Assembly (NCBI GenBank): GCA_030666985.1
Contig: DAOUWT010000001.1
Coordinates: 1-58,452 of the forward strand
DNA length: 58,452 bases
Reading direction: 5' to 3'
From: Chloroflexota bacterium
GTDB lineage: Bacteria > Chloroflexota > Anaerolineae > Anaerolineales > UBA11858
Shown: piece by piece, positions 19,373 through 51,842 of the stretch
Layout of the letters: the number at the start of each line of letters is the position of its first letter
Numbering within the stretch: the first letter of the stretch is position 1
Notes under the pieces: model-generated
Database searches by the model: none
Told to the model about the DNA's origin: nothing
Seen by the model: the letters and a program-made list of their open reading frames with translations, nothing else
Position numbers and translations under genes: made by a program

Positions 19373-19420
19373 AATTTTCTCCTGCTTGTTACTAGCTTGA
19401 AGTATGAAAAAATATGGTAA

Positions 19421-20497
19421 TTATTTTCTTTTTGCGTTCTCGCGAATGGTCTTTATTTGCATATCTGTAATGGGACGCTCGAATGAACGGAATCCGCTTA
19501 ATTTGAAACCATGTTTATCGGCAATTGCGGCAATTTCTCTTACCTGTCGAAGGTTTGATTTTTTCCCTAGACTATAGTCTTCGAACTTTCCTTCTAGTGC
19601 TAAGGCAATCGTCTCAGCCATGCAGGCGTAGGCTTTGCCAGGGGGGAAGCCAAAATCAAAATTGAAATTTACTAGCCCGGGAACATCGACGACGCCGCCA
19701 TCAATCACCAGGACATCGTCTCGCTCTTTAGCAATTGCCTCTGAAACGTCTCGAGGACGAGCAACATCGCAGATGACGCTTCCTGGGCGGAGATGCTGCG
19801 GTTGGACGATGGCTTGGACTGAGCTTGTCACGGTGAGGATTAGATCCGCCTCCCAGAGGCTGTTCAGGTCTGTGGATACGACCAATTGGGCAGAAGAATT
19901 GCCTTCTAATCTTGAATGAAGTTCATGCAATTTCTTTTCAGTGCGCCCGATCAAAAAGAGGCGGGCAACTTCTTCGGCAAGGAGAGCGGCGCAAACTTCA
20001 CCAATCGAGCCAGTGGCGCCAACCACGGCTGCGGTAGCCTCACTTACCTCGATATTCATTAACTTGGCTGCCTTGTGTATCGACTGGATGGCGGTTGCAA
20101 TTGTGTAGGAGTTGCCGGTCGTTACCGGGATATCTAAACGTTTTGCTACTGTTATCCCTCCGTCACCAACAACTGCTGTAAAGGCACCTAGCCCTACAAT
20201 ATCTGCTCCCAGCCGTTCCGCGAGACGCCCGGTCTGAACGATTTTCCGATAAGCGACCCACTCAGGTAATTCTACCATACGTTGCGAGGTTAACGGGCAG
20301 GCGATCAACCAGCCTTTGATTGTTTTTCCAGTGGATTCTGAAGTGATATTTTGAATTTCGGAAAGATAGACCGGCGGAAAGAAGGTGGAGAAAAAGTTGA
20401 TCAGCGGTGCATTGAGCACTTTCCCCAAAAAGGGGAATTTCCGTTTGACATCCCGTTTGGGGTCTATGGGGTGGATGATGAAAGCGAAGCTATCCAT
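19421..20497 (-). CDS. Acyl-ACP reductase (AAR)-family-like NAD(P)-dependent oxidoreductase
   Basis: From memory it is collinear with cyanobacterial AAR. Matching motifs: FIIHP vs LIGHL, GLGAFTAVV, TTGNSYT vs TTGNTHT, AAVVGATGSIG vs VAVVGATGDIG, ACMAETIALALEG vs ACFAEAMLLEFEG (the Cys aligned with the AAR catalytic Cys is present). Confidence 0.7.
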   Translation of the reverse strand: MDSFAFIIHPIDPKRDVKRKFPFLGKVLNAPLINFFSTFFPPVYLSEIQNITSESTGKTIKGWLIACPLTSQRMVELPEWVAYRKIVQTGRLAERLGADIVGLGAFTAVVGDGGITVAKRLDIPVTTGNSYTIATAIQSIHKAAKLMNIEVSEATAAVVGATGSIGEVCAALLAEEVARLFLIGRTEKKLHELHSRLEGNSSAQLVVSTDLNSLWEADLILTVTSSVQAIVQPQHLRPGSVICDVARPRDVSEAIAKERDDVLVIDGGVVDVPGLVNFNFDFGFPPGKAYACMAETIALALEGKFEDYSLGKKSNLRQVREIAAIADKHGFKLSGFRSFERPITDMQIKTIRENAKRK

Positions 20498-20500
20498 TTT

Positions 20501-21784
20501 TCACCAGGAAGCATCCTTGATTTCCCCTAGCCGTGGATAAAGGCGTTTGTGCTTATCTGCAAATGAAAAATGACGGTGGTCGCTGTCTTCATACTTAATG
20601 TCTTTCCTGATAATTCGCCTTTCATCTGAGGCTACGAGGACAACGTCGGATTCGATAGTTCTTCCTGGGAAGACAATCATCCCGGAGCCTATTCGGCAGT
20701 TGTGCCCTACGCAGCCTCCCAAAACAGGCCGGTTGGCAGAATCAAGCTTGCCGCTGCCATTCAAGGCTTTCAAAGGAGTTGGGATCAAGTTGAAGTCTGT
20801 GAAGGTTGAGCCAGCTCCAATGAAGGTGTTTCTTCCTATTACGCACATTTGGAGGCACGTATTTTGGGCAACCATGCAGTTGTCCATGAGAGTGGTCATG
20901 AAAAGCGAAGCCCTAAAAGGGAGAAAAGTTCCATTGCCAATCACTGAGAGCATTAGCTGGCAGCCTTGAGAGATATTGACATTATCTCCAATAACACAAT
21001 TTTCAATGCTTGTCCCGGCCCCAACTGTGACATTGTCGCCAATGATTGTTGGGCCATGGATGACAGCCGAAGGATCAATAACGCAGTTGCGACCAATTTT
21101 AACTACTTCTGAACATTCCAGGATTTGTTTCCCCTCATACATAGCTTTTGCCAGAGTGTTCAATTTGGCGAAGGGGCTTTTATCTATTTTCGCCTCGAAC
21201 CTGGCCCCGCGTGAAAATACACCAAAGACAACGTCGGCGATAAAGATATGCACCCAGGAGTCTATAGCCAATAAATTTCGGAGTGGAACCTGGAATGTTA
21301 GATCGCCTTTCTCAGATGCCATGTAAGTTGGGACATGATAGTATCCAACTTCACGTGCTTGGAGGTCTACCACGAGCGGCTTGGTGCCGCGGCTTGGCCC
21401 ATTGGGGTAGTACCAAAGGTCTGCCAAATAGATATCCTTATCTGGCACATGAGTGTATGAAGTTGAAAGAGGGAAGGCGTGTTCTATGAAGGCTGGATCT
21501 CGACCCGAGAAAGCCGCGCGGGAGGGATAATCGCGCTCCATAGCTTTTTCCAAGAAAGCTTTTACATATCTTTCGTCAAAGTATAAATTGTCCCGGTGAA
21601 CAAGGCAGGCTTCTTCGGTATCGGGGAGAGGATAATTAAGGGGAAGTTCTACTTCTCGTTCTACGTAGGGAGAGAGGACATCATGCTGAAAGAGCCAGAG
21701 AGGTTTGTTTTGAATACGCAAATCTCGGGCTGGCTCATTAAAAGGATAAATATGTTCAGGATGTTGGCGTATTATTCTGAGCAT
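20501..21784 (-). CDS. Left-handed beta-helix (hexapeptide-repeat) transferase-family protein with an unassigned ~230-aa N-terminal domain
   Basis: Hexapeptide repeats IGRNCVIDPSAVIHGPTIIGDNVTVGAGTSIENCVIGDNVNISQGC.... I place the start at ATG 21784 (MLRIIRQHPE...). The tracked 78-codon extension translates the G-rich repeat and overlaps the upstream gene. Confidence 0.75.
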   Translation of the reverse strand: MLRIIRQHPEHIYPFNEPARDLRIQNKPLWLFQHDVLSPYVEREVELPLNYPLPDTEEACLVHRDNLYFDERYVKAFLEKAMERDYPSRAAFSGRDPAFIEHAFPLSTSYTHVPDKDIYLADLWYYPNGPSRGTKPLVVDLQAREVGYYHVPTYMASEKGDLTFQVPLRNLLAIDSWVHIFIADVVFGVFSRGARFEAKIDKSPFAKLNTLAKAMYEGKQILECSEVVKIGRNCVIDPSAVIHGPTIIGDNVTVGAGTSIENCVIGDNVNISQGCQLMLSVIGNGTFLPFRASLFMTTLMDNCMVAQNTCLQMCVIGRNTFIGAGSTFTDFNLIPTPLKALNGSGKLDSANRPVLGGCVGHNCRIGSGMIVFPGRTIESDVVLVASDERRIIRKDIKYEDSDHRHFSFADKHKRLYPRLGEIKDASW

Positions 21785-21834
21785 AGTGTAGGGTGTTCCA
21801 GGTATATAGTAGTGATTATTCAGCCCCTGTAGAT

Positions 21835-21975
21835 TTTTTGGGGGAGGGGTGCCACGCGGGGGGGGGGACGGGGGGGGTGGGGCGTGAGACCAACCCCCAA
21901 GCGTGACCCCACGCTCAAGCGGGGAGCAACCCTGGGGGGGACGGGGGGGTGCGCTCCCACCAATCTCCAACGGGG
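21835..21975 (+). repeat. Copy of the dispersed G-rich/hairpin element
   Basis: tttttgggggaggggtgccacgcggggggggggacggggggggtggggcgtgagaccaacccccaagcgtgaccccacgctcaagcgggg... shares blocks with 8555-8664 and with the reverse complement of 5621-5716. Confidence 0.75.
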
Positions 21976-22004
21976 AGTGAATGGTCACTCTGAGACTTGA
22001 GGTT

Positions 22005-22796
22005 TTAGGCTGCTTCATCCTCTATAAAAAGTCTGAGAGTTTCCATGAATTTATTGGGTTGATCGAGCATTATGAAGTGTCCGGCATCATCAAAGCGTTC
22101 TATGCGCACATTTGGGATATGGGCCTGCATGAGCTGCCATTGATCAGGGTCTACAATGACATCTTTTTTCCCATACATTCCCATGGCCGGTATTCTTATC
22201 TGGTCAAGATGCGGTCGGAGGTCTGTTTGCCGGAGAGTGGAAATACTGATCAGAAAAGATTCTAAAGTGGTTCGGGAAAGGTCTCTATCCATCATTTCTG
22301 GCCAATGAGGGTCTTTGGTTATAAAAGGAGAAGAAACACGAATTCCCATCCTAAGCGCCCACATAGAACTGAAAACCAACTTGGCAATCCATCTCTGCCC
22401 TGCTAGTTTGAGCAATAGAGCAAGTGATTCACCGGTGATTGGAGAACCGATTACCGCCACCTTTTGAACTCGGTTGGGGTGCTCTATCGCCAGGGAGAGG
22501 CTGACCGTTCCCCCCATGCTGTGTCCGATCACGGGTGCCTGGATGATGCCCAGGTGGTCCATGAATTGCTCGACCATCTCGACAAAGTCTTCCACTGCAA
22601 AAGATTGTTGTTTTCTCCCCGATTCTCCAAAGCCCCAGAAATCAAGGGCATAAGTTCGGTAATGCTGTCCTAGATATGTCATCGTCCTTTGCCACAGACC
22701 CCAGGAGCCTAGCCATCCATGCAAGAGGATAATTGGCCGGCCCCGGCCGTACACTTCGTAGTGAAGAATACCTTGATCGGTTGTAATCGAGGACAT
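22005..22796 (-). CDS. Alpha/beta hydrolase (intact Ser-Asp-His)
   Basis: ILLHGWLGSW, VIGHSMGGTV, GKKDVIVD, DAGHFIMLDQP. 263 aa. Confidence 0.9.
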   Translation of the reverse strand: MSSITTDQGILHYEVYGRGRPIILLHGWLGSWGLWQRTMTYLGQHYRTYALDFWGFGESGRKQQSFAVEDFVEMVEQFMDHLGIIQAPVIGHSMGGTVSLSLAIEHPNRVQKVAVIGSPITGESLALLLKLAGQRWIAKLVFSSMWALRMGIRVSSPFITKDPHWPEMMDRDLSRTTLESFLISISTLRQTDLRPHLDQIRIPAMGMYGKKDVIVDPDQWQLMQAHIPNVRIERFDDAGHFIMLDQPNKFMETLRLFIEDEAA

Positions 22797-22813
22797 AGAG
22801 TTGGTTTCGTGGT

Positions 22814-23353
22814 TTAGAACTCGCCTGCCCCCATTTTTTCAAGGATACTATATAGGAGTTCCAGCAAGGCGGTTTTGACGGATTCTTTGTCAGTAGCTAC
22901 GCAGGGTAATAGTTTAACCTCAGGAGAAAGGCGCAGTGCAATTCGCATATCGCTTGTCTCCCAGGCATCGGGGAGATCTTGTTTGTTGGCGGTGACAACA
23001 TACGGAGTTGGGGCATACGCTCGGAAAGTCTCCAGAATTCGGCGTGCTTCTCGGAAGGTTTCCGGTCGAGCGCTATCTACCATGACGATAAAACCCAACA
23101 TGCCTTCTGAGAGAATCTCCCACATGAAGTCAAAGCGTTTCTGGCCCGGGGTTCCGAAGAGGTAGAGAACGAGTTCATCGTCAACTGTGATACGACCAAA
23201 GTCCATGGCGACCGTGGTTGTCTCTTTGATCTTTTCTGCTTCTGATGAGATTTTACGTTCGGTAGCAACAACGTCAATTTCACTGACAGACTGGATGAAT
23301 TCGGTTTTTCCTGAGCTAAAAGGGCCGGTAATAACCATTTTGACGGTTTGCAT
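22814..23353 (-). CDS. Small Ras-like GTPase of the MglA/CvnD (COG2229-like) type
   Basis: G1 GPFSSGKT, G2 region TTTVAMDFG, G3 FGTPGQ, G4 NKQD. 179 aa. Confidence 0.85.
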   Translation of the reverse strand: MQTVKMVITGPFSSGKTEFIQSVSEIDVVATERKISSEAEKIKETTTVAMDFGRITVDDELVLYLFGTPGQKRFDFMWEILSEGMLGFIVMVDSARPETFREARRILETFRAYAPTPYVVTANKQDLPDAWETSDMRIALRLSPEVKLLPCVATDKESVKTALLELLYSILEKMGAGEF

Positions 23354-23397
23354 AAGATCTTTCCTTTTTAAAATGACTAATGATTAGGTTAAGAAAA

Positions 23398-24216
23398 TTA
23401 TAATGATTGAATTCGTTTTATCAAACGGTTGACAAGTGACTTTTGTTCTTGTTCACCACTGACAGGGAGGGACGGTTTTTTGTACTTGGTCGCTGTGGCG
23501 CTTGCGGGGCGAATCAATTGAGCTAGCCCAGCCTGAAGTAATCCATAGACAATGCGGCGAATCTCCAAGTCATTCATCTTTGTGGCTTTAGCAATTTGTT
23601 GAATTGTATTTTTGGGATTGACATAAGAGACCACCCGCCACTCTTCGACGCTTAAGTTCACGTTGCGGATGTCTGTGCCGGGGTTATCGGTGAATTTCAA
23701 AGCCATTTCCAGGCTGGGTATTTCATCCTGAAGTTGCTCCCATTCTCGCAGACGGCGAGACCCTTCCATAATGATGTTTTCCAGGTTGATCCGCAGGGTG
23801 ATTTTGCCATCTTGAGGGAGAATATCGTTCTGAAATTGGAATAAGCCTTCCACCCAAGTAAAGAGATTATTGACTGTTCTTACATATTCCTCTTTTAGGC
23901 CAGTGAGAATTTCTTTTTGAGTGACGTAATTTGCGTTTATCAATAATAAGCCTAATTCTTTATCCCCTATATTTCCTGCCCTGGATTGAATTAACCTAAC
24001 TTGTCTTTTAGTGAGTTTGTCATTCCTGTACAAGGTTGCTGCCAAACTAGTGTTACGCTGATCACTGTATGCGTGGGCTAGTTTTCCTTCCCGGAAGGCG
24101 ATCCACGCAGTTTGGCCGGGACCTTTTACTTCTAATGTCCCGGTTTTTTGAGCTAGACTAATCAAGTTCAAAAGCTGTGTAATTGTAAAATCTCTGAGAT
24201 TACCTTTTAATGCCAT
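23398..24216 (-). CDS. DUF4388 (PATAN-like) domain protein with a possible C-terminal wHTH
   Basis: N-terminus LKGNLRDFTITQLLNLISLAQKTGTLEV is the DUF4388 signature. The C-terminal TIQQIAKATKMNDLEIRRIVYGLLQAGL looks like a DUF742/CvnC-type HTH, but that is an inference. Confidence 0.75.
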   Translation of the reverse strand: MALKGNLRDFTITQLLNLISLAQKTGTLEVKGPGQTAWIAFREGKLAHAYSDQRNTSLAATLYRNDKLTKRQVRLIQSRAGNIGDKELGLLLINANYVTQKEILTGLKEEYVRTVNNLFTWVEGLFQFQNDILPQDGKITLRINLENIIMEGSRRLREWEQLQDEIPSLEMALKFTDNPGTDIRNVNLSVEEWRVVSYVNPKNTIQQIAKATKMNDLEIRRIVYGLLQAGLAQLIRPASATATKYKKPSLPVSGEQEQKSLVNRLIKRIQSL

Positions 24217-25746: not shown

Positions 25747-25822
25747 TCCTTATCACCACAATCGCTAAATAGATTGGATCAACGCACAAACGATGATGCA
25801 AATCAGCGCGGGTGAGCTTTGG

Positions 25823-25831
25823 TGGTATAAT
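25823..25831 (+). promoter_or_regulatory. Extended -10 promoter element (TGGTATAAT) upstream of the MNT-HEPN pair
   Basis: TGnTATAAT at 25823-25831. The -35 is weak (tcagcg). The MNT start at 25929 is ~90 nt downstream. Confidence 0.35.
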
Positions 25832-25928
25832 AGTTCGCTGCCAGCTTTACATTGTTTTTGCTCAAAACCATATTTCTAGCGATGAGCAAATAGCAGGAAT
25901 TCAACCACGTGCAACAAGGGGCAATCTG

Positions 25929-26219
25929 ATGGAATTTGAAAAGAACATCACTGAAATAGTGCAAACCATTACAAAGTTCGTACAACCGGAACGGGTTATT
26001 TTGTTTGGTTCCAGAGCGCATGGTACAGCCCACCGTTATTCAGATTATGATATTGCTTTGTCAGGTGTCACTATTGATCATAGAATGGAACGCCGCCTTA
26101 AAGAAGCCTTGGATGATAGGCTGGGCATCTTCACGGTTGATCTGATCCTGCTTGGTAGAGTAGACTCGGAATTCAGAGAGATTGTCACGCAAAACGGAGT
26201 GATAATATATGAAAACTAA
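25929..26219 (+). CDS. Minimal nucleotidyltransferase (MNT) antitoxin-type protein
   Basis: ILFGSRAHGTAHRYSDYDIAL (GSxxxG...SDxD). I place the start at ATG 25929, because the tracked upstream extension has no homology-like features. Confidence 0.8.
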   Translation: MEFEKNITEIVQTITKFVQPERVILFGSRAHGTAHRYSDYDIALSGVTIDHRMERRLKEALDDRLGIFTVDLILLGRVDSEFREIVTQNGVIIYEN

Positions 26220-26607
26220 AACCCTGATTTACGCGCTCAATAAATTTGAAAAGGCTTTTACGAGACTGGAAGCAGCCGTGGAGAAAGTTGTGGACGATTT
26301 GGATCGCGATGGAGCTATCCAACGTTTTGAGTTTACGTTCGAACTCTTGTGGAAGACGGCCAAGATATTTTTGGAATATGAAGGATTTAGATGCGTCAGT
26401 CCCCGTTCTTGTATCAAGGAAGGCGTCCGAAGGGGGCTTTTATTAGAAGGTGAAGTCCTTCTCGATATGATGGAAGATAGAAACAAGACGACGCATATCT
26501 ACGATGAACACACGGCTGAGGAGATATTCGAGCGCATCAAAAACGAGTATGTTCCGGTGATAGCCAGCAACATCAAGAAAATAAGGGAGTTGTGCCCCGG
26601 CGGATAG
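26209..26607 (+). CDS. HEPN domain protein, HI0074-family (nucleotidyltransferase substrate-binding protein)
   Basis: AIQRFEFTFELLWKTAK and the Rx4H HEPN motif RNKTTH. It overlaps the MNT gene by 11 nt. Confidence 0.85.
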   Translation: MKTKTLIYALNKFEKAFTRLEAAVEKVVDDLDRDGAIQRFEFTFELLWKTAKIFLEYEGFRCVSPRSCIKEGVRRGLLLEGEVLLDMMEDRNKTTHIYDEHTAEEIFERIKNEYVPVIASNIKKIRELCPGG

Positions 26608-27157
26608 TTTTAGTGGGAATGAGACTGATTAGTTGGTTGATAATATTTTGCTGATTCGTGCCAGATGGGCAAAAGAGCGGGGGGGCGAATAATTACCGCT
26701 AGCAGGCTGTCGGAGAAGTCAAAATGGGACGCTGACGGCCAAGACCTACACTTGGCTAAGCAGATAAATGCTGATTTAAACCTGCTTAAACGGTTAAAAA
26801 TCTGCGTTAATCAGGAAAATCTGCGTCCAAAATTCTTTTTCCGACAAACTGCTAGTGGCACAAATTATTTTAGATTTTAGCCTTAAAGCTCGTAAAATTG
26901 TGGGGGTAAAATAAATGCGTGATAAAAGAGGCTATTTTGAGCAGTCATCCTTAAAATATTCATTTTCTGAACACGGCTTGCCTTTTTAAGTTATAATGAC
27001 ATTACACTAATTTGGAATGAAAGGCATAGCTGCGGCAACGATGGAAGAATGGGGGAAGCAATGTGGTCATCAATGAGGTCTTCTTTGAACAAATGCTATT
27101 CGGTAAGACGATAATAGTGCTTTTTAAGCATCCCTTGGGGGGAGAGGAGGCGCGAAA

Positions 27158-30100
27158 ATGAATAGAAGATCAAATAATCAAATTCTGGTTCGTGTTTTTA
27201 GTGTGGTTCTGCTTGTTAGTTTGTTGTTCTCAAACTTGAGATTCTTTGGCGATCTGCCCACAGTTCACGCTCAGAAGGAAAAACAATCTATGCCCACTAT
27301 GCTACCATCGGGAATAGAGTCACTGATGTCTAAGCCTTTATATTCTTCATCATCTTTCAGTATTGGTGATACTGTACAGGTCACAACTAATCTTAATGTT
27401 CGGGTTGGGCCAGGTACAGGTTATTCTGAGATTACAGATCCTGACTATCTAGTTTATGAATATGCTCCACAGGGAACTATTGGAGAAGTAATTGATGGCC
27501 CTGTATCTGATGGCAGTTACATTTGGTGGAAAGTAAACTTTGGGCCTGGGGAATACACAGGGTGGTCAGTTGAGATGTACCTCACGGAGGTCGCCCAAAG
27601 ATACGATATCCAATGGTCAACTGCACAGAGTAATGGTTGGAAAAATCCACTAGGAGAGGGGAAGACGCTGACCACTAGTACAGCATATGATTTTGACTCC
27701 GGCATATATAAGGAAACCTGGAGTGCAAGGCATGCCGGGGTGGATATTGTAGCCTCAGAAAATTCATCTATTTATGCAATAGCAGATGGAACGGTCGAAT
27801 ACGTAACGAGGCCTACTAATACCGAGAATATGGTGGTGATTATTAGGCACGAAGGAACGCCACATGGGGATTTCTTTGCTGTCTATGGACATGTTTTGGC
27901 AATTGAAGGGCTAGAAAAAGGAAGTCAAGTTAGCGCAGGTCACAAAATAGGTGCCAGTAAGAAATGTGGCAACCCTGCCCATCTACACTTTGGAATAAAC
28001 AAATATAAGGTAGCTCAATCCGGTTGGGGAAGGACACCAGTAGAAGTAGATCCTATAACTGAAGACTGGGTTGATCCTGTTGATTTTCTAAATAATAACA
28101 CGAATAACCATTCTAATAACCACCCCCCCAACGCAGAAGCAGCAGTGAGCACCAGCCTTTATGGGCCATTTTATGGGTACGATAACCCTCTCACAGTAAC
28201 TAGAGGTGAAGAAATTACTCTGTATTTCTATGCCGACAAAGATGTAGATGGAGATGGATTAAAAAGTCATGATCCCGATGGTTGGGATCATGCAGAGAAT
28301 GGTGTTTCAGATGGCGGGGTGTGTGAATGGAACTTGAATCTAGAACAGCAAAACCCTTATTTCGAAATGAGATTACATGATCCTGTATCCCCTGATGCTT
28401 GTAACATATTATTCTATAACTCTCAAAACCCTTACACTTTTAACGACGAGCCAGGAATATATGAGTATCCACTATTAAGCATTACAGACAGAAAAGGTGA
28501 ACAATCTATTGTGAGTAGGATTAGAATCAGAGTGGTTGATGGAAATACATCTACTCCTACGTTAACGCTCACACCCACATTAACGAGGACACCCTCTCCA
28601 ACGCCCTCATTGACACCTACCGACACACCTACTGATACACCGTCCTCCACATCAACGGGCACCCCGACTCCAACCCAAACCGATACACCGACGCCAACCC
28701 AGACCTATACACCTTCCCCAATACCCACTAATACCCTGACACCAACCCAAGCCCAAACCCAAACCTACACTCCACCACCAACATCTACAGAGATACCCCC
28801 TGATGGATCTTGGCACACACCCTCCGCGGCAGGAAAAGCCGAAAATGAATGGAACAACCCCGAAAACGCATTCTTCAGTGACAATAACTATGCAACGGCA
28901 CATGGAACTTATACAGAACAAGATTACTATTCCTTTGACTTTGATATTCCACCAAATGCTACCATTGAAGGAGTTGAGGTTGCTGTCGAAGGACATGGGG
29001 AAATAGGAGGTAGTGATCAAATCTCAGTTGAACTTTGGTCAACGAGTAGGAACCCAGATGAAACTCCGCCATTAGGGTTTTGGGGGACTAAAAACAATGG
29101 TCAAGCTGGATGGTGGCTGCTAGGAAACGGAAGCGACTCAACAATTGTCGAGGGCGGCCCTTCAGATCTTTGGGGTGTTAATTGGGTGCCTTCAGATTTC
29201 TCAAATGATAATTTCTTACTCAGAATCAAAACGTTCTCAAACCCCGATAGAGTTTATGTCGATCAAGTAAAGGCCAAGGTTTACTACACCATTTCGCCAA
29301 CCAATACGCCAACAGCGACATCAACCCCGACGAGCACAGCAACAGGAACCGCTACACCCACAACTACCCCACAACCAGCAACTCCGACACGGATACCAAC
29401 TTCTACTACAGAACCAGAATCGGGTTGGTATATCCAGACAGTTGATAACGATGGAAATATTGGGCGATACAGTTCTCTAGTGATAGACGATTGGGGCTAT
29501 CCCCATATCAGTTATCAAGATTTTGGTAATGGGGATTTGAAATATGCTTATTGGGATGGCTCTACTTGGCATATAGAGACTGTGGATAGTGAAGGAATCG
29601 TGGGTCTATTTACCTCATTGGAATTAGATGAGAGCGGACATCCTCACATAAGTTATTACGACGACACCTATGATGATCTAAAATATGCTTACTGGGATGG
29701 AACATCTTGGCAAATCGAAACCGTTGACAGCACTGGATTTGTCGGAGGTTATACTTCTCTTGCTCTAGATGGAGAGGGTTATCCTCACATTAGTTACAAT
29801 GACTATGGCAATGAAGATTTGAAATATGCTTATTGGGATGGCACCTTTTGGAACATAGATACTATTGACAGTAATGGAAATGTGGGCAGAGACACATCAA
29901 TAATTTTAGATGGTTATGGCAATCCACATATTAGTTATCTAGATCATGGTAATAACGATTTGAAGTATACACATCAGGACGGTTCAGGATGGCACTTCGA
30001 GGTTGTTGACACTGCAGGAAGCGTTGGCCATTGGTCAACACTTGAGATTGACGCGACAAATTATCCCCATATCAGTTACTACGATGGGAGCAATGGGCAT

Positions 30101-33100
30101 CTGAAATACGCTTCCTGGAACGGCTCTTCATGGCAGAGAGAAATCATTGCAAATGAAGGAATCGAAGGTTTGTATTCCTCAATTATATTGGACTCTAATG
30201 ATCACCCCCATATAAGCTTTCATGAAGGCTTCAATGATGATTTAAAATATGCCTACTGGGATGGATCCCAATGGCATATCCAAGTAGTGGATGATAGTAA
30301 TGATGTTGGTCAATGGACATCAATTGCACTTGATACTATAGGCTATTCACATATCAGTTATTATGATTGGGGAAATTCCAATCTAAAATATGCTTATCAG
30401 GAGGAAATTCCCGAACAAACTGAGACCCCTTCTTCAACGCCAACAAATACGCCTACCCAAGTACCAACTCCTAACGAAACGCCCTCTCCAACTCCCACCG
30501 ATACACCGACTCCAACTTCAACATACACGCCAATCCCGACGTCTACCTTTACACCAACACCCACCCCAACCTACACGCCCTCTCCAACCTCTACCAATAC
30601 ACCGACATACACTTCAACATCCACTCCATCCTTAACACCTACTGATACCCCAACGCCCACAAGTACTGTAAGCCCCTCAATCACTCTTGTTTCTTTCACT
30701 GCGACCATTGAAGGATTGGATGTAAAAATCGAGTGGGAAACTGCCTCGGAGTTTGATTTATCAGGCTTTTATGTCCTCCGAAGTTTGTCCCTAGATGGGA
30801 ATTATTCGCGCATCAGTGGATTCATCCCCGGAGAAGGTGACAGCATCGTCGGCACCACTTATGAATTCATCGATACCAATGTCAATTCAGGTACCAATTA
30901 CTACTACAAACTGGAAGATATAGACATTAATGCCGTCTCAACCTTTCATGGTCCAGTCGCGGTTGGCTCCACCACTCAAACGCCTACTCCTACCATAGTC
31001 GAATCTGGCACACCAACTCGTACTCCAACATTCACACCGACTCCAACTTCAACATTCACCCCATCCCCGACTCCGACAAATACTCCTGAACAATCATTTT
31101 GCTCCAACGTAACCGAAATTCCTAATGAGGAATGTGATGCTCTAGTAACACTCTACAACAGCACCAACGGTGATAATTGGAACAATAATGATGGCTGGTT
31201 AGTCACAGATACTCCCTGTGATTGGTACGGAGTTACTTGTACTGCTGGACATGTTGTGCGGCTTGATTTGGATTGGAATGAGTTAAGCAGAAACATTCCT
31301 CCCGAATTGGGGAATCTATCCAATTTGGAGTACCTTCGTTTGTCCGGTAACCAACTGAGCGGCAATATACCCTCCGAATTGGGGAACCTATCCAATTTGA
31401 CCGATCTCGATCTGGATTGGAACGAACTGAGCGGAAACATTCCTCCCGAATTGGGGAATCTATCCAATTTAGCACATCTTAATCTGTCCTCTAATAACCT
31501 GAATGGCAACATACCCACCGAATTGAGTAACCTTTCCCATTTGGAAAGGTTATCTTTGTATGGTAACGATTTAAGTGGCAATATCCCCCCTGAACTAGGT
31601 AATCTGACAAACGTTGTGAGTATTCGTTTGGAAGGAAACACATTATGTGGTGAAATACCTTCGGATCTGGGAAATTTGTCTAATTTAGCTTATCTCGATT
31701 TGGGCGATAATCAATTAACGGGGAGTATTCCTGCTGAATTGGGCAACCTTTTTACTAATTCAGAGTTACAAGAACTCCAAGATTTGGGTAACACTACACC
31801 AACTGGTGGGGGAGGCGGATGGCTATTTCTGGATTTGAGTAATAATCAGTTGAGTGGTCATATTCCGTCTGAGCTAGGTAATATGACGAAACTTCATATG
31901 CTTAATTTGGCCGGCAATAAGTTAACAGGCCCTATTCCTGAGGTGATTGGCAATTTAGTCAATCTATATTTTTTACAGTTGGATCGAAATGCCTTGTCTG
32001 GGGAGATACCAAGTTCTATAACTAATTTAACACAACTAGAAACAACATGGGAGACTGATCTGGGCTATAACATGCTATATTCAACGAATCCCAGTGTCAT
32101 TGTTTTTTTAGATGTGAAAGATTTTGATTGGGACAGCTCCCAAACTATTCCTCCCAGTAACGTAGAAGTAGCAGAGGTTGGGGAAACCAGCGTAAAATTG
32201 TCATGGATCCCTGTACTTTATCTCGGACACAGTGGTTATTATGAGATTGGTTATGCTACCACGGAGGGAGGTCCGTACACAATTTATGGTCAAACCAAGG
32301 ATAAGTCTATAAGTGAGTATGTCGTGAATGGTTTATCTCCTGATACAACTTATTACTTTGTTGTACGCACGTTTACACCTGCGCATGGGGCTGCAGATAT
32401 GCCCGCTCATGAGCCACAACAGAATGACCTATTGAGTGCCTATAGCGTTGAAGCTTCAGTTACAACAGGCACTACCAAGCCAGAAATCAATGTAAAAGGT
32501 AACGGCCGTTCTATTATGGATGGAGACATGCTGCCTTCTACAATCGACAATACTGATTTTGGTACGATTAACTTTCAAGATGGTACTATCACTCACACCT
32601 TCGTAGTTGAGAATACTGGTAACCTTGATTTGACAATTACTTTACCGATTTCTGTTACTGGTACAAACCCGGGTGATTTCAATATCACAAATTCTCCAGC
32701 CTCCTTAATTTCTCCTGGGGGTTCAACATCCTTTACTTTGGAATTTGATCCTAGTGACATTGGAGATATAGAAGCCGTTATTAGTATTACCAATAATGAT
32801 GAAAATGAGAATCCTTATGAATTTGCAGTTCAAGGTAATGGAGGCATTCCGCCAATAGAACGAAATGCCCTCGAAGCTCTTTACAATAGCACCAATGGTG
32901 AGAACTGGTGGAATAACGATGGGTGGATGGATCCTGATATTTCTCCATGTGAATGGTATGGTATTACTTGTAGCAATGACCATGTTGTCAAAATCCAGTT
33001 GAGATGGAATGATTTAGAAGGTTACATTCCTTTAGAATTGAGTAACCTATCCAATTTAGAAGAGCTTTCTCTAGGAGGTAACGAACTTGCTGGGAGTATG

Positions 33101-35605
33101 CCCGCTGAGTTAGGAAACCTATCCAACTTGGCAAACCTTGATCTGAGTTATAACCAACTGAGTGGCAGCATCCCTCCCGAACTGGGAAACCTATCGAATT
33201 TGGAGTACCTTAATTTGTCCGAGAATCAACTGAGCGGTAATATACCCTCCGAATTGGGCAATCTATCCAATTTGGGAGTGCTATCTTTGTACGGGAACGA
33301 TTTAAGTGGCAGCATCCCCCCCGAGCTGGGAAATTTGTCCAACTTGGAAGAGCTCATGCTGGGCTACAACCAACTGAGCGGTAGCATCCCTCCCGACTTG
33401 GGTAATCTATCCAATTTGCGAAGGCTATCTTTGCATGGTAACAATTTGAGTGGCAGCATTCCCTCTGAACTAGGTAATCTTTCCAATTTGACCAAAATTG
33501 AATTACAAAATAACCAACTAAATGACAGTATCCCCTCTGAACTGGGTAACTTATCCAACTTGGAAATGCTTATTCTGGCTGGTAATGAATTGAGTGGCAG
33601 TATCCCATCTGAACTAGGTAGTTTAACTAATTTGTTTTATCTTGTGCTTAGCAATAATCAATTAACAGGTGAGATTCCCACTGAGTTAGGTAACCTTTTT
33701 ACTAGCGTATCGCTCGGGAATCAACAAGATATAGGTGACCCTCATCCAATGGGTGGTGGTGGGGGAGGACCAATTCTTGATTTGAGCAATAATCAATTAA
33801 GTGGTCATATTCCTTCTGAGTTAGGCAATATGGAGAATCTTTCTTGGCTTGGTTTGGCCGGAAATAAGTTAACCGGCACCATCCCAACAGAAATTGGACA
33901 ACTTAGTAATCTCCAAATTTTGCAATTGGATCGAAATGCACTGTCAGGGGAGATACCAAGCACCATAACGAATTTGACTAACCTAAGAACGGTATGGGAA
34001 ACTGATCTTGGCTATAACATGATATATTCAACAAACTCCGCTGTCATTGACTTTTTGGATGTGAAGGATTTTGATTGGGATATTTCCCAAACTATTCCGC
34101 CCAGTGATGTTCAAATAACTATGGTTGGACAAAGTAGCCTGAAATTGTCTTGGACACCCATACCTTATCTAGGACATGGTGGATACTATGAAATCAGTTA
34201 TTCCACCATAAAAGGAGGCCCATACACACTTCATGGCCAGACCCAGGATAAATCCGTAAGCGAATATATCGTAGACGGTTTATCCCCTGATACAACTTAT
34301 TACTTCGTTGTACGCACGTTCACACCTGCGCATGGAGCCGCTGATATGCCCGCCCATGAACCGCAACAAAATGATTTGCTTAGCGACCCAAGTGGTGAGG
34401 TCTCTGTCAAAACTTCCTCTTTTTCAATTTTACAGACTGATGACTACAATGTTGCCCCTGGTGATAACGTCGTTGTTTCCATTGAAGCTCTAGACCTTCC
34501 CAGTTCTGGCCTGGGGGCTGCCACAGTCGAAGTTCATTATGATCCTTCCATACTTGAAATCGTTAACTGCGTTGTTGACCCTGATGGTCGATTTGACTTT
34601 GGGAATTGCAATAAGGACTACGAAAATGATGGAAGAGCCTTAGATATAGTTCGTTTCAATTTGACTTCTCTGACCGGGATACCTGGGAACGAATTACTAG
34701 CAAACATCACTTTCAAAGCTATTGGAATTGCAGGAGAGGTCAGCGTTGTTGATATTGTCAAAGTTACATTCGCGGATACGGATGGTGAGCCTATTTCGGT
34801 GAATGACCAAGATGGAAGTGTTTCATTATTCTTCCAAGGAAATGTGAGTGGCGATGGGAACATTGATGTCATCGATGGCATGTTTATTCTACAATTCGAT
34901 GTCGGCTTAAGAGGTGGCAGCAGCCAATACCCGCCCCCTCAAGGTTCGATGTTTACACCGGCTTGCGATGTCAACCATGATGGAGTCTGTAATATTGTAG
35001 ATGCCCTATTCATTCTTCAATGTGATATTGGCATTCATAATGTATTCTGCCCGGCCGAGGGTCAGGGCACTACTGGGATTATCAAACAAAATAATCATAG
35101 TCCTGGTGTTTTGGGTGAATATCCCAGTGTTGAGGATAGTGCGAGTATAAGTGCTGGGACAGCAGAAGTATCTTCTGGGGAAACGGTTGATATTTCCGTG
35201 GAAGCGAATTTCACAAGTGATAATTTGGGGGCAGCGACCATTGATGTGAGTTATGACCCATTAGTGGCAAACGCTATTGCCTGTACAGCTAATCCCAATA
35301 GTGATTTCGATTACGGGTATTGCAATCCAAATTATGATAACGATGGGGTAAATCCTGATATTGTGCGATTCAATCTGACGTCATTAACGGGCTTGGAAAA
35401 TGGACTTTTATTAGCGAATATAACCTTCGAAGGCGTAGGAAACCCTGGAGATAGTAGTGTCTTGAACGTGGTCCCTATTATAGTCACCGATGCCAGTGGG
35501 GTATCTGTTCCGGTAGCTGATCAAGATGGTGAAATCGAGATTAGCTCTGCGGGAGGAGTGGGTGCTAACGTAATCTACCTCCCAATCATCCAGGTTGGGC
35601 CGTAG
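27158..35605 (+). CDS. Giant (2815-aa) secreted multidomain protein. Domain order: signal peptide, SH3b, M23 peptidase, PT linkers, 7-repeat propeller, two plant-type LRR blocks each with FN3, choice-of-anchor-D-like domain, cohesin-dockerin-cohesin
   Basis: GGAGAGGAGG RBS. Signal peptide ...LPTVHA-Q. M23 motifs HAGVDIVA ... HLHFG (about 27620-28020). SH3b at 27356-27593. Remaining domains are read from the translated sequence, as detailed in the findings. Confidence 0.95.
29426..30400 (+). repeat. Seven tandem ~46-aa repeats inside the giant gene (W.IETVDS.G.VG.YTSL.LD..G.PHISY.D....DLKYAYWDG)
   Basis: 325 aa divide into 7 units beginning WYIQTVD, WHIETVD, WQIETVD, WNIDTID, WHFEVVD, WQREIIA, WHIQVVD. 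The region is flanked by PT linkers. Confidence 0.9.
31125..32475 (+). repeat. Intragenic duplication, copy 1 (LRR N-cap, ~10 LRRs with Gly-rich island, FN3)
   Basis: [38 protein letters not shown] ... [35 protein letters not shown]. Confidence 0.9.
32850..34415 (+). repeat. Intragenic duplication, copy 2 (LRR N-cap, ~13 LRRs with Gly-rich island, FN3)
   Basis: [39 protein letters not shown] ... an identical 35-aa [35 protein letters not shown]. It is ~215 nt longer than copy 1, which equals three extra 72-nt LRR units. Confidence 0.9.
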
Positions 35606-35719: not shown

Positions 35720-37285
35720 ATGAAGAAAAAAATTGCCATTGCTTTGCTGTTTCTACTAGTACTCAGCGTAGCAGTCGGTGGTACGGCTTCCGCCCAATAT
35801 GATGGAAATACTTGGAACACCGCCTATCAGGTAGTGAACATGGGAACCGCCCCGGCCGATATTGTCGTGAGATACTACGACAGCGCGGGCACAGAGATCA
35901 CCGCCGCCGAGAAGACCTTCACCGATGTCCCTGCCAATGGCTCTGTGCTGGTTGTGCAATATACGGATGACCCCGATTTGCCAGAGGGAACCTATTCAGC
36001 CATCATCAGCGCAGACCAGCCCGTGGCCGCCATATCCAACATTCAGCTTGTCCCGGATGGGGCCGGCGCGTACACCCCAGGGCCGCCTTTCTCCACCTAT
36101 AGCGGGCAGGGAGAGGGGGCCGCAACCTTGACCCTCCCGGCCGTGATGCACAACTGGTACGGATATTACACCGAGATCATCATCATGAACACGGACGGAA
36201 CCCAAGCCACCAATGTGGATATTACCTACGTCCCGGGGACGATGGACGTGGGGGCCGGCCCGGAACCGACCGGCGCGGCGGGGGTCACGGAAGTTGACCT
36301 TTCCATCCCCGGCTACGCATCCATCAACCAGAGCCAAGAGAATAAAACAGACCTGGGCGCTCCCACGGGAACCTTTACGGGAAAATTCTTTGGCGCGGCC
36401 ACCATAACCTCAGATAAGCCCATCATTGCTGTGGTGAACCAACATAACGTGGGCAACCATAAGCTCATGACCTATAATGCTTTCACGGAGGCAGGGGCTA
36501 CAGATGTTTTCGTTCCCACCCACATGCGCGGATTTTACAATTACTACACGACCTTACTCGTCTCGAATCCCAGCGCAACCCTGGATGCTGCCGTGACCAT
36601 CACCTATACGCCTGATGAAAACTATTCCAACGTGCCGGAAGCGGGGAGCAGCATTGGGACGGTGGTAGCTGCCCATACCATTTCCCCCCAAACTACCCTG
36701 CTGCGCTACGATGGCCCTGGCTCCAGTGACGGGCAAACTGATCTGGACGACCACGACGAAACGGGACACGCTTATACGCGCTTTTTCGGCTCCGCGAAAA
36801 TCACATCTGATAACCCTGTCCTAGTTCAAGTGAACATCGAAGCGGCTGCCACCAGCGCAGGGCAGGCGGGTTCTTTCAACGGGATTGCCGAGGGGGATGC
36901 CGGTACAGACCTGGTTGCCCCCGTGATCTTGGCAGATTTTTATGGCTACTATACCAGCCTGGTGGTGCAGAACGCCACCGCTACGGAAGGCACCTGCGAC
37001 ATAACCTATACCTCCGATGACACCTACAGCGCGGTAAAGAACCACTCCGAGACCTACCCCCATACCATACCGGCCAGCGGCAGTTTCATGATTTATGAAG
37101 GTCGTGCCAACGACCAGGAAATTGGAGACATCAACAGCGACGTGACCTGGCGGGCCGAAGGAAACAAAGAATTTATCGGCAGCGCGGTGATTTCTTGCGA
37201 TGTAGATGTGGTAGCCTTCGTGAACGAGGAAACCAACAGAAACAACCGCGATACCATGTACACCATGAACACCTTCAAGAAGTGA
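35720..37285 (+). CDS. Secreted protein with four ~120-aa internal repeats, family unknown
   Basis: Signal peptide MKKKIAIALLFLLVLSVAVGGTASA. Repeated YGYYT.(I/L)(I/V).N.......(D/T)ITY(V/T)(P/S) ... F(F/I)G(A/S)A.I(T/S).D.P. GAAGGA RBS. GC content is visibly higher than in the preceding giant gene. Confidence 0.85.
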   Translation: MKKKIAIALLFLLVLSVAVGGTASAQYDGNTWNTAYQVVNMGTAPADIVVRYYDSAGTEITAAEKTFTDVPANGSVLVVQYTDDPDLPEGTYSAIISADQPVAAISNIQLVPDGAGAYTPGPPFSTYSGQGEGAATLTLPAVMHNWYGYYTEIIIMNTDGTQATNVDITYVPGTMDVGAGPEPTGAAGVTEVDLSIPGYASINQSQENKTDLGAPTGTFTGKFFGAATITSDKPIIAVVNQHNVGNHKLMTYNAFTEAGATDVFVPTHMRGFYNYYTTLLVSNPSATLDAAVTITYTPDENYSNVPEAGSSIGTVVAAHTISPQTTLLRYDGPGSSDGQTDLDDHDETGHAYTRFFGSAKITSDNPVLVQVNIEAAATSAGQAGSFNGIAEGDAGTDLVAPVILADFYGYYTSLVVQNATATEGTCDITYTSDDTYSAVKNHSETYPHTIPASGSFMIYEGRANDQEIGDINSDVTWRAEGNKEFIGSAVISCDVDVVAFVNEETNRNNRDTMYTMNTFKK

Positions 37286-37293
37286 TGTTTTTT

Positions 37294-37324
37294 GCGGGAC
37301 GCGGACGAACGCGGAAAACGCGGA
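37294..37324. repeat. Short tandem repeat (ACGCGGA-type words)
   Basis: gcgggacgcggacgaacgcggaaaacgcgga fills the 38-nt spacer before ATG 37324. Confidence 0.7.
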
Positions 37325-38355
37325 TGAAAAGCTACAGATTCTCCCTTTTCCTTCTACTCACAATTGCCCTCGTCGCTTGTTCGGGGAGAGATCTACCTGC
37401 TACGGAAATTTTCTTTCTCTCCGACCGGGATGGGGAGCACGAGCTTTACGCTATGGGCGTGGATGGCGGCCAGGTGCGGCGTGTCCTGAGTGTGGACGCC
37501 CTTCCCTCAGGGGGAGAGATATCCCGCCCCGTGTGGAACCCCGCCCTGGAGCGTCTTTTCTTCGGTGTGAGCGTTGGCTCCAGCTCGGATATTTACCTTT
37601 GTGACCGCTGGGGAGAGGCCTTGCAGAACCTGACGGAGACCCCCGCCCGCTACGAGACCCAGCCCCTCCCCTCCCCCAGCGGCGAATTCGTAGCCTACAC
37701 CGCGGTAGAATTCGACCTGGATATAGGCCTGATGGACAGCGATGGCGGCAATCCCCGCAACCTGACAGCCCACCCGGCCCGGGACGTGTCTCCCCGCTGG
37801 GGGCCGGGTGAGGGCATCCTCCTCTTTTCCTCCAACCGGGAAGGGACGCCCAACATTTTCAGCCTAAGGCTTGCGGGCGGGCAAGTGGTGAACCTCAGCC
37901 AAGGGAAAGGGCAAGACGGAAGCTTCTCCTGGTCTCCCGATGGAAGCCTTATAATTTTCGAAAGCGACCGGGACGGCGCTAAAGATATTTTCGTGATGGA
38001 TGCCGAGGGTGAGGACATCCACAACCTGACCAACACTCCCGCGGGCCGGGAAACATCCCCCGCTTGGTCGCCCGACGGGACGCAGATTGCCTTTTACCTT
38101 GAAGACGAGCGCGGCTGGGACATCTACTTAATGCCATCCGCAGGCGGGTCTCCCCAGGCGGTTACACACACCCCTGAAATCCGCGAATTTAGTATGACTT
38201 GGTCTCCTGATGGGAAGAAACTTCTCTTTACCGCCAAGGAGAACGAATATTTTGACATTTATGTTTTCGAGTTGGCGAGTGCAGAACTTATCTGCCTTAC
38301 TGAGAACGATAGCAATGATTACGCCCCCTTTTGGGTTCAAGTTATAGATGAGTGA
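37324..38355 (+). CDS. TolB-like beta-propeller lipoprotein (PD40/WD40-like repeats)
   Basis: Lipoprotein-type signal MKSYRFSLFLLLTIALVAC. Six to seven PD40 units (WSPDGSLIIFESDRDGAKDIFVMDAEG, WSPDGTQIAFYLEDERGWDIYLM, ...). I place the start at ATG 37324 rather than the tracked 37195. Confidence 0.85.
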   Translation: MKSYRFSLFLLLTIALVACSGRDLPATEIFFLSDRDGEHELYAMGVDGGQVRRVLSVDALPSGGEISRPVWNPALERLFFGVSVGSSSDIYLCDRWGEALQNLTETPARYETQPLPSPSGEFVAYTAVEFDLDIGLMDSDGGNPRNLTAHPARDVSPRWGPGEGILLFSSNREGTPNIFSLRLAGGQVVNLSQGKGQDGSFSWSPDGSLIIFESDRDGAKDIFVMDAEGEDIHNLTNTPAGRETSPAWSPDGTQIAFYLEDERGWDIYLMPSAGGSPQAVTHTPEIREFSMTWSPDGKKLLFTAKENEYFDIYVFELASAELICLTENDSNDYAPFWVQVIDE

Positions 38356-38516: not shown

Positions 38517-39329
38517 ATGAATACAACTACTAAACGAGTGATTTGGGATGTGGGTTTAGTTTTGGTTACAGCCATGATGACTTTTATTGTGACCACGAAA
38601 ATGATGCCCATCTCTCCGGCAGAGCCTGTTCAGGTTTTAGATCCGCCTCAGCCTGTGATAATTGAAAAAACGGTAGAGGTTGAGGTTGTGGTCACGAAAG
38701 AGGTTGTGGTCACGGCCACTCCCAAGCCAGCCACGGCTACGCCCACTCCCACGCCCACCCCGGCGGCCACCTTGGGGCCTGCCTCTGCCCATGCTTCAAT
38801 GATTTGTTTTTCGGGAAACGTCGAGGAAGCTCAACTTGAGAAATACCTCGCCGGGCAAGAAGAACTTCCGAGCGGGGCCAAGGAAGCTGATATCCTGGAT
38901 AGCGGGTATGTCTTCATGGGTTCTGTGCCGTATGGGGGATACAAGTTTTGTGTCTTTACGTATGAGCTTAATCGGGGCGGTGGAGACGGTTTGACTTTGG
39001 CTTTATATAATTATGGCGCTGACGAACCTTTCGAGACATTCATCTTGCAGTCTAGTACGCTCGAGCCGCAGCGCGTTTATGTAGTGATTTCACATAGTCT
39101 ACTTGTCAATCCTAACGGACGCTGGGTTGGAGTGGCTAAATTTATCAATCCCGATAGTGGCGTTTTGCTAGTGGACAGATTGAGCATTGCCGGCAATAAA
39201 AGAGCCGGTGGCGGCGGTGGAGGAGATGATGATGAAGGGGGTGGCGGCGGCGGAGATGACGGCGGCGGCGGTGGGGGTGGTGGTGGCGGAGGAGGTGGGG
39301 GTGGGGGTTCCTCAGGTGGTGGGAGTTAG
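38517..39329 (+). CDS. Membrane-anchored protein with PT linker, globular domain and an extreme Gly/Asp C-terminal tail
   Basis: GAGGA RBS. N-terminal TM VIWDVGLVLVTAMMTFIVTT. Linker ATPKPATATPTPTPTPAA. The C-terminus is RAGGGGGGDDDEGGGGGGDDGGGGGGGGGGGGGGGGSSGGGS. Confidence 0.7.
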   Translation: MNTTTKRVIWDVGLVLVTAMMTFIVTTKMMPISPAEPVQVLDPPQPVIIEKTVEVEVVVTKEVVVTATPKPATATPTPTPTPAATLGPASAHASMICFSGNVEEAQLEKYLAGQEELPSGAKEADILDSGYVFMGSVPYGGYKFCVFTYELNRGGGDGLTLALYNYGADEPFETFILQSSTLEPQRVYVVISHSLLVNPNGRWVGVAKFINPDSGVLLVDRLSIAGNKRAGGGGGGDDDEGGGGGGDDGGGGGGGGGGGGGGGGSSGGGS

Positions 39330-47990: not shown

Positions 47991-48072
47991 CCCCCACCAA
48001 CTTCACTGAATTGTTTTGCGCTAAATCCGCAATGCCATTGTGTATTTAGTGTAGTTGTGCTATCATGTTTTT

Positions 48073-51572: not shown

Positions 51573-51842
51573 TGGGGAATGGTGAATTGTGAATGGTTAA
51601 TGGGGCATGGGAGCGGGGGGCGTTTCGTTGTTCTATTGTTGCGTTTCACCTTAAAGCATGCTATACTGAATTGCAGTATTCCTAAAAACGACAGTTTAGG
51701 TGGCTATTTTGCTGTACATACTCCGATTCAGGGGAACTTGCAATAGATATGCGGTTTGGTTAGGGGGAAATTGCTGTAAAATAGTTATCTGAATATTGGA
51801 CATTTAATTTTTCGTTAATAAATTCATTGAGTGGAGGACAAC

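Follow-up and report, generated by a model that had tools for sequence, protein, structure and literature searches.

The gene described here lies at positions 27158 to 35605 of the forward strand of contig DAOUWT010000001.1, from a Chloroflexota bacterium of the class Anaerolineae, and encodes a protein of 2815 residues in one uninterrupted open reading frame (ORF) of 8.4 kb. The window, the whole stretch of DNA that was analysed, is 58,452 nucleotides long; nucleotide coordinates refer to it, and all features of this gene are on the forward (+) strand. The N-terminal head of the protein consists of an SH3b domain followed by an M23 metallopeptidase domain with all of its catalytic residues in place, and the rest of the chain is a long series of linkers and other domains. 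Pfam and NCBIfam scans, composition and homology identify, besides the head, four Pro/Thr linkers, a seven-bladed propeller, a domain like fibronectin type III (FN3), two units of leucine-rich repeats (LRRs) plus FN3, a choice-of-anchor D domain and a cohesin-dockerin-cohesin arrangement. Every module listed in the initial annotation is recovered, in the order given there. To that list are added a 145-residue domain at residues 318–462, island insertions in the LRR blocks and a C-terminal YLP tail. A strong ribosome-binding site, GGAGAGGAGG (27141–27150), can be read from the sequence with the ATG 7 nt downstream, and the 550-bp intergenic region 5′ of the gene holds promoter-like sites. No terminator-like site was found 3′ of the gene, and no tRNA or Rfam features were found across the window.

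The M23 domain spans residues 151–310 (27608–28087), with its Pfam core at residues 191–285. PF01551 (Peptidase_M23) matches it with 57.1 bits in the whole protein and 62.8 bits when the domain is excised, against a cut-off of 28.7 (E 2e-15). The catalytic residues are H192 and D196 in HAGVD, H245 in YGH, and H275 and H277 in HLH, giving the HxxxD, middle His and HxH elements. These five residues align with those of the solved M23 enzyme PDB 9gy1 (TagE and LytM are further PDB matches), and they are invariant across 43 homologous domains. The initial annotation had named missing zinc ligands as one of the observations that would refute it; all of them are present, and the domain looks catalytically competent from its sequence. 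The SH3b domain, of the SH3_3/SH3_4 kind, occupies residues ~60–147 (27335–27598). The Pfam SH3_3 match to it is weak (E 0.023), and the domain is strongly homologous to the tandem SH3_3/SH3_4 proteins P0012, P0013, P0015, P0016 and P0019, with per-domain E-values down to 6e-36. An SH3b domain preceding a catalytically intact M23 domain, as first proposed, is borne out by an above-cut-off Pfam match for the latter and by homology for the former.

The N-terminus of the protein (residues 1–38, 27158–27271) resembles a signal peptide, as the initial annotation had also noted. In the translation, the basic n-region MNRRSNNQ is followed by a hydrophobic core and by PTVHA and then QK, which suggests a Sec signal peptide with cleavage after V-H-A and before Q. 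When 5.8 billion proteins were searched with the head, the best matches were 43–48% identical and came from proteins other than the architectural relatives discussed below, and no close orthologue (>48% identity) was found among them. When the GTDB species genomes were scanned with the head, the sole match was an archaeal SH3b domain.

Like the M23 bacteriolysins of the lysostaphin, LytM and zoocin A type (MEROPS M23B), the protein would be a secreted zinc endopeptidase that has HxxxD and HxH motifs and is coupled to an SH3 wall-binding domain. It has distinctive features of its own. Lysostaphin has an SH3_5 domain C-terminal to its M23 domain, whereas here the SH3b domain is N-terminal, belongs to the SH3_3/SH3_4 kind and gives no SH3_5 match. 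Similarity to LytM is at E ~1e-3. The protein is roughly ten times longer than lysostaphin and adds lectin-like, LRR and cohesin/dockerin modules, and Pfam scans of ORFs of at least 120 residues from 18488 to 46908 reveal no FemABX-type immunity gene. The term lysostaphin-type, as originally used, fits the pairing of an M23 domain with an SH3b wall-binding partner, but it does not fit the position or kind of the SH3b domain or the missing immunity gene, and it is best taken loosely.

The head is followed by a domain of 145 residues, D1 (residues 318–462, 28109–28543), which is recognised by its ~60% identity to three tandem copies in P0001, a protein made of an M23 domain and three D1 copies. 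No relatives of D1 were found in Pfam, PHROGs or a PDB profile search. A PKD-like assignment was considered and dropped, since hhalign against the PKD-like segment of P0316 was negative. Four linkers rich in Pro, Thr and Ser, delimited by a composition scan, separate the modules of the first half of the protein. Linker 1 covers residues 462–531 and runs on to ~545 (28544–28792), linker 2 residues 708–755 (29294–29419), linker 3 residues 1085–1183 (30413–30706) and linker 4 residues 1271–1316 (30974–31093).

Between the first two linkers lies D2 (residues 546–712, 28793–29293), a domain of 167 residues that corresponds to the unassigned domain of ~160 residues in the initial annotation. D2 has no sequence-level match in Pfam, NCBIfam, PHROGs or the PDB, and the leads to its nature come from fold comparison. 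Its AlphaFold2 model is a jelly-roll (pLDDT 84), in which Foldseek finds likeness to carbohydrate-binding modules (CBMs) of the PDB, namely CBM22, CBM8 and CBM35, at E ~6e-4 and TM-scores of 0.45–0.51. The model is closer to predicted viral proteins, with E-values down to 6e-9 and TM-scores up to 0.71; the top matches among these lack any characterisation, and tail-fibre or tailspike annotations appear among the weaker ones. Judged from the model, D2 may be read as a ligand-binding module, probably for glycan. The family is large, with 2967 relatives among 1.84 billion cluster representatives (50% clustering). Relatives (P0167–P0315) form tandem arrays, in which as many as 11 stretches match, or are stand-alone proteins of ~170 residues. 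The stand-alone proteins begin with MADTGFKSPTATG and have no signal peptide.

The propeller (residues 755–1085, 29420–30412) consists of seven repeats of 47 residues each, spaced at 141 nt. In the AlphaFold2 model (pLDDT 95.2), 28 strands form seven blades. Among solved structures, the Photorhabdus PLL/PHL lectins come nearest (E 1e-15, TM-scores of 0.75–0.79), and they share the seven blades and the length of ~330 residues. Unlike in these lectins, the propeller here is embedded among the other modules of a very large protein, and its sugar binding is putative. The identity in the structural alignments is 10–13% (~12% overall), and a phmmer search of the PDB gave no sequence match at E ≤ 1. 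More than 4800 homologues of the propeller were found, some with precomputed PF23911 or PF15892 hits. On the evidence of the model, the propeller is probably a lectin.

The remainder of the chain is made of Ig-like and LRR domains, followed by the cohesin-dockerin region. An FN3-like or Ig-like domain (residues 1184–1272, 30707–30973), to which Pfam gives no match, is also present in P0165 and P0185 and is recognised by homology to them. LRR block 1 (residues 1313–1660, 31094–32137), defined by Pfam and by the repeat register, comprises an LRRNT_2 cap, ~7 LRRs of 24 residues, a Gly-rich island, ~3 further LRRs and a C-cap. LRR block 2 (residues 1897–2310, 32846–34087), defined by Pfam and by its repeats, has an N-cap, ~10 LRRs, a Gly-rich island, ~3 LRRs and a C-cap. 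Each block is followed by an FN3 domain. In domain a (residues 1661–1772, 32138–32473), Pfam fn3 matches in two stretches, while in domain b (residues 2311–2420, 34088–34417) it matches at residues 2314–2389. The two FN3 domains are 75% identical, and the tail of LRR block 2 shares 76% protein identity and 77% DNA identity with block 1. Between the two LRR-FN3 units sits a choice-of-anchor D domain, an Ig domain of the HYDIN-VesB-like kind (residues 1773–1896, 32474–32845), with matches to NF012200, PF22544 and PF07610. The full NF012200 profile is covered, at residues 1775–1884, with 71.8 bits against a cut-off of 45.

By sequence, the LRRs belong to the plant-specific class. The LRRNT_2 cap scores 30.4 bits against a cut-off of 20.7, LRR_1, LRR_8 and LRR_14 also match, and 19 units at 24-residue spacing match the strict pattern of the plant-specific 24-residue consensus, LxxLxxLxLxxNxLSGxIPxxLGx. 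The best PDB matches of the repeats, with E-values inflated by the repeats, are the ligand-binding ectodomains of the plant receptor kinases GSO1, MIK2, FLS2, TDR and BRI1. With these ectodomains, and with the bacterial plant-type LRR proteins XopAE, XopL and XopAC of Xanthomonas, the protein shares the 24-residue repeat (LxxLxxLxLxxNxLSGxIPxxLGN) and an LRRNT_2 cap with paired cysteines; the island insertion is as in BRI1 or PSKR. It differs from them in having neither a kinase domain nor a type III effector context, and the NCBIfam Xop scores are far under their cut-offs. A literature search on plant-type LRRs in bacteria found nothing specific.

The C-terminal region contains two cohesins with a dockerin between them. 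Cohesin 1 (residues 2421–2560, 34418–34837) matches PF00963 with 42.6 bits and cohesin 2 (residues 2661–2800, 35138–35557) with 25.8 bits, against a cut-off of 24.1, and the two are 46% identical. The putative dockerin (residues 2561–2632, 34838–35053), whose PF00404 score is slightly short of the cut-off, has two calcium-binding loops that read as DxNxDGxxxxxD-like in the sequence. Non-cellulosomal cohesin-dockerin proteins and scaffoldins likewise combine cohesin and dockerin in an exported multi-module protein with conserved calcium-binding loops. Here, in contrast, there are no glycoside hydrolases, and both cohesins and the dockerin are on one chain with a peptidase. A literature search on cohesin, dockerin or M23 proteins of Anaerolineae found nothing specific.

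The protein ends in an "IYLPII" tail (35570–35602), found by a motif scan and a position weight matrix. From its sequence, the tail appears to be a divergent form of the YLP-box, an ultrashort motif with a putative role in sorting, and it is the only YLP-type motif among all ORFs of the window. The motif is already curated by NCBIfam, as NF050076 (sort_motif_YLP) and NF053834 (ultrashort_CTERM), which ruled out that the tail represents an undescribed motif; no literature on it was found, and we know of no processing enzyme for it. As in the NCBIfam YLP-box, a [VI]-Y-L-P-[LI]-[IV] core falls within the final 11 residues and no transmembrane segment follows it, but Q-V-G-P stands where Leu and Arg/Lys are usual, and the function of the motif itself is putative. 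The position weight matrix, built from 42 tails, gives the tail 8.7 bits, where the training tails themselves reach 12 bits or more. It is the best 9-mer of the whole protein, and a fraction of 4e-5 of internal 9-mers score as high.

Among the 316 proteins fetched, 45 have [YF]LP[LVI][IV] within their last few residues. A longer pattern, [VIL][YF]LP[LVI][IV]x[RK], is found 2–10 residues from the end in proteins that include P0046–P0165, P0169 and P0316, and the same YLP motif is internal, at residues 43–156, in P0062, P0094, P0136 and P0148. Of eight tails submitted to NCBIfam, six matched NF053834 with 10 bits, its cut-off, or more, and four of these six also reached 15 bits, the cut-off for NF050076. 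The YLP-type tail is common to P0316 and ~40 propeller-family proteins. Since it follows propellers, cohesins or other domains, it is independent of the domain that precedes it.

The full architecture was found in no other protein, and subsets of it recur in metagenomes. P0316, which by predicted domain content is the closest architectural relative, has, together with P0169, an M23 domain, a PKD-like region, FN3, LRRNT with plant-type LRRs, D2, dockerin, cohesin and an IYLPLTVGQ tail. P0167 and P0236 combine SH3b, M23 and D2, and P0171 has Amidase_2, SH3b, M23 and D2. P0002 pairs an M23 domain of the same subfamily with a different kind of LRR. The D2 domains of P0167, P0169/P0316 and P0171 are 53–65% identical to D2 of the present protein. 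Even though P0316/P0169, P0167, P0236 and P0171 share these modules, they are shorter (774–1821 residues), their M23 heads are not close to the head described here, and they lack the propeller, D1, the choice-of-anchor D domain, the duplicated LRR-FN3 unit and the two cohesins. The initial annotation regarded the combination as uncharacterised, which holds for the full architecture but not for its subsets. The combination is unusual; its parts and smaller relatives are already in public data.

The neighbourhood of the gene is compositionally mixed. Its G+C content at third codon positions (GC3) is 0.369, most neighbours are at 0.44–0.66, and every module lies at 0.28–0.48, under most of the neighbouring genes. 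The gene was initially described as more AT-rich than both flanks. This holds on the downstream side, where the contrast is sharp, but not upstream, because the nucleotidyltransferase (NTase) gene a short way upstream (25812–26219) has a GC3 of 0.382 and the intergenic region is comparably AT-rich. This NTase gene is the first of a pair of NTase and NTase-substrate-binding (HEPN-like) genes at 25812–26607. In locus L002, the P0316 gene (92–3712) has a GC3 of 0.625 against 0.73–0.80 for its neighbours and is likewise accompanied by an NTase-HEPN gene, which follows it.

Further upstream, a block of DUF4388, MglA-like GTPase, alpha/beta hydrolase, hexapeptide transferase, shikimate-DH-like and response regulator/GGDEF genes at 18488–24216 (−) keeps its order in ~50 metagenome contigs (L018–L082). 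In all 80 metagenome loci fetched, of which ~50 have the extended block, the gene for the giant protein is absent near the GTPase block; L005, the one close relative locus, is too short to inform on synteny. This absence from the conserved block, together with the lack of a close orthologue of the head and the GC3 shift seen here and in the relative of L002, indicates that the gene is accessory rather than housekeeping, and it is possibly moving between lineages. FeoB, another product of this contig, shares 83% identity with a protein of a 'Chloroflexi bacterium' metagenome-assembled genome (MAG) and 62–64% with Anaerolineales/Anaerolineae MAG proteins; these best named relatives support the Chloroflexota origin that had been proposed.

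Otherwise the surrounding genes are ordinary ones. Genes upstream also include some like toxin-antitoxin genes, and at 11600–18481 (−) a sensor histidine kinase of 2293 residues has ~9 GAF domains, PAS and HisKA/HATPase_c. Downstream lie genes for a putatively secreted protein of 521 residues without a Pfam match, for a PD40 propeller protein and for a large membrane protein. The 521-residue protein, encoded directly downstream at 35720–37285 (+), has a signal-peptide-like N-terminus, a recurring YYT(E/T/S)hhhxN motif and a GC3 of 0.66 against the 0.369 of the giant gene. For the PD40-repeat protein (37195–38355, +), the listed TTG start overlaps the upstream gene by 91 nt, and an internal MKSYRFSLFLLL... 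looks like the true start with a signal peptide. A 270-residue protein at 38517–39329 (+) ends in a long Gly/Asp low-complexity tail (GGGGGGDDDEGGGGGGDDGGGG...). Two further genes are strongly AT-shifted, one for an AAA_14/DUF4143 ATPase at 48055–49221 (+; GC3 0.32) and one for a 1215-residue Sortilin/BNR-repeat protein at 51831–55478 (+; GC3 0.27). The contig is a compositional mosaic.

The reading that we favour, with confidence that is about evenly balanced, is that the protein is a wall-lytic enzyme, targeted by lectin-like modules and either retained at the surface or secreted, which acts on foreign cells or on wall debris. The protein would be exported by the Sec route from the Anaerolineae cell, and its SH3b and M23 domains would form a zinc endopeptidase that cuts the peptide stems or cross-bridges of peptidoglycan. 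The four Pro/Thr linkers and the Ig/FN3 spacers would act as a flexible tether that carries the recognition modules, namely the CBM-like D2, the PLL-type propeller, the two plant-type LRR solenoids and the choice-of-anchor D domain. The two cohesins, the dockerin and the YLP-type tail may hold the protein at the surface of the producer, or link it to itself or to other proteins with dockerins or cohesins. The lectin-like, LRR and SH3b modules would then attach to wall debris or to other cells, in the latter case by glycans or proteins of the envelope, and the head would hydrolyse the adjacent peptidoglycan, for antagonism or for nutrient recovery. This reading is preferred because the M23 domain is intact, the SH3b domain has clear homologues, and the pairing of amidase and M23 in P0171 supports a dedicated wall-lytic role for such a head. 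It is also preferred because D2, the propeller and the LRRs resemble binding modules, because cohesins, dockerin, choice-of-anchor D domain and YLP tail are present, and because the gene is accessory.

Several observations weigh against it. The signal peptide was judged by eye, the dockerin falls slightly below the PF00404 cut-off (22.3 against 22.9 bits, E 1.5e-4), and neither NF050076 nor NF053834 matches the tail of the protein, or the tails of P0169/P0316. The likenesses of the propeller and D2 are purely structural, at roughly 10–23% identity. The window contains no immunity or secretion-system genes and no other cohesin or dockerin genes, so that a partner gene is absent there, a further difference from scaffoldins. 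M23 enzymes also serve the producer's own cell division and wall remodelling, and antagonism, scavenging of necromass and autolysis are not separable from sequence. The initial annotation spoke of an antagonistic or predatory lysin whose modules provide targeting and self-assembly. The predicted exported M23 head, the many binding modules and a cohesin/dockerin set that could mediate assembly agree with much of this, but nothing supports predation. The genus known for it, Herpetosiphon, belongs to the Chloroflexia, not to the Anaerolineae, and scavenging of cell-wall remains is no poorer a fit to the Anaerolineae lineage.

An autolysin or cell-separation enzyme is an unlikely but reasonable alternative, in which the M23 domain would remodel the septal or lateral wall of the filament itself while the binding modules and the tail keep the protein on its own envelope or sheath. 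M23 enzymes are common in division and elongation. NCBIfam gives the protein weak similarity to ActS, an amidase activator, and to Pgp3 and ShyA, peptidases that remodel cell shape and wall. A YkuD L,D-transpeptidase is encoded near the relative in L002, and the cohesins, the dockerin and the YLP-type tail suggest a protein that is kept at the surface. However, a gene that lies outside the conserved neighbourhood in 80 loci and has an atypical GC3 is unlike a core division gene. Its head has no orthologue above 48% identity among the 5.8 billion proteins, yet relatives of FeoB at 83–86% identity exist among the same proteins, and housekeeping enzymes of this kind seldom carry lectin-like propellers, domains like those of tail fibres or tailspikes, or plant-type LRRs. 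We give a similarly low probability to a protein that is mainly a giant adhesin or a scaffold of the matrix, serving attachment in flocs, sheaths or biofilms, and whose M23 domain would be accessory, cleaving a Gly-rich protein other than peptidoglycan or only binding the wall. More than 85% of the length consists of binding, spacer or assembly modules, surface proteins typically have features such as the choice-of-anchor D domain and the YLP tail, polymerisation of the molecules through the two cohesins and the dockerin is conceivable, and thousands of propeller-family proteins have no enzyme domain at all. Against such a scaffold stand the full conservation of the M23 catalytic residues and the recurrence of the head together with SH3b and, in the case of P0171, also an amidase; this points to selection on wall-lytic activity.

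Less probable still is that the protein forms the core of a cellulosome-like assembly for bacterial walls. Its two cohesins and one dockerin could link it into chains and recruit wall-binding or lytic proteins that bear dockerins. Anchored on the filament by the YLP tail, the complex would use its lectin and LRR modules to catch prey or debris. Proteins that join D2 to a dockerin, such as P0173 and P0167, do occur in metagenomes. An assembly artefact, in which repeats from several metagenome genes were falsely joined or expanded, would be surprising. The contig does come from a MAG, the gene has many repeats and its composition is unlike that of its neighbours, but a single frame runs over 8.4 kb, from a signal peptide that follows a ribosome-binding site to a terminal sorting-type tail. 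The identities of the LRR units (60–80% in DNA), the propeller blades (68–81% in DNA) and the two LRR-FN3 units (75–77%) are too low to mislead an assembler. Since the repeats are diverged, the GC3 is below that of most neighbours in every module, and the independent relative P0316 has the same module order of LRR, D2, dockerin, cohesin and tail, misassembly is very improbable.

Sludge, sediments and digesters hold large numbers of Anaerolineae, for which cell remains are believed to be part of the diet, and to our knowledge most of the extracellular enzymes for this way of life are still unknown. If the preferred reading of a wall-lytic enzyme is true, a peptidoglycan endopeptidase that is tethered to the surface and guided by lectin modules would offer a concrete candidate for attack on neighbours or for the recycling of wall debris by these bacteria. 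The protein also provides three leads. D2 represents a large, un-modelled jelly-roll family that travels with wall-lytic heads and resembles phage proteins that are uncharacterised or annotated as tail fibres, the plant-type LRRs are ectodomain repeats in a free-living bacterium, and the tail offers a test case for the still putative YLP-box sorting signal. Current understanding is not overturned, since a catalytic head joined to targeting modules is a well-known principle. The main value of the protein is as an entry point to the exo-enzymes of Anaerolineae, to the D2 family and to the YLP-box.

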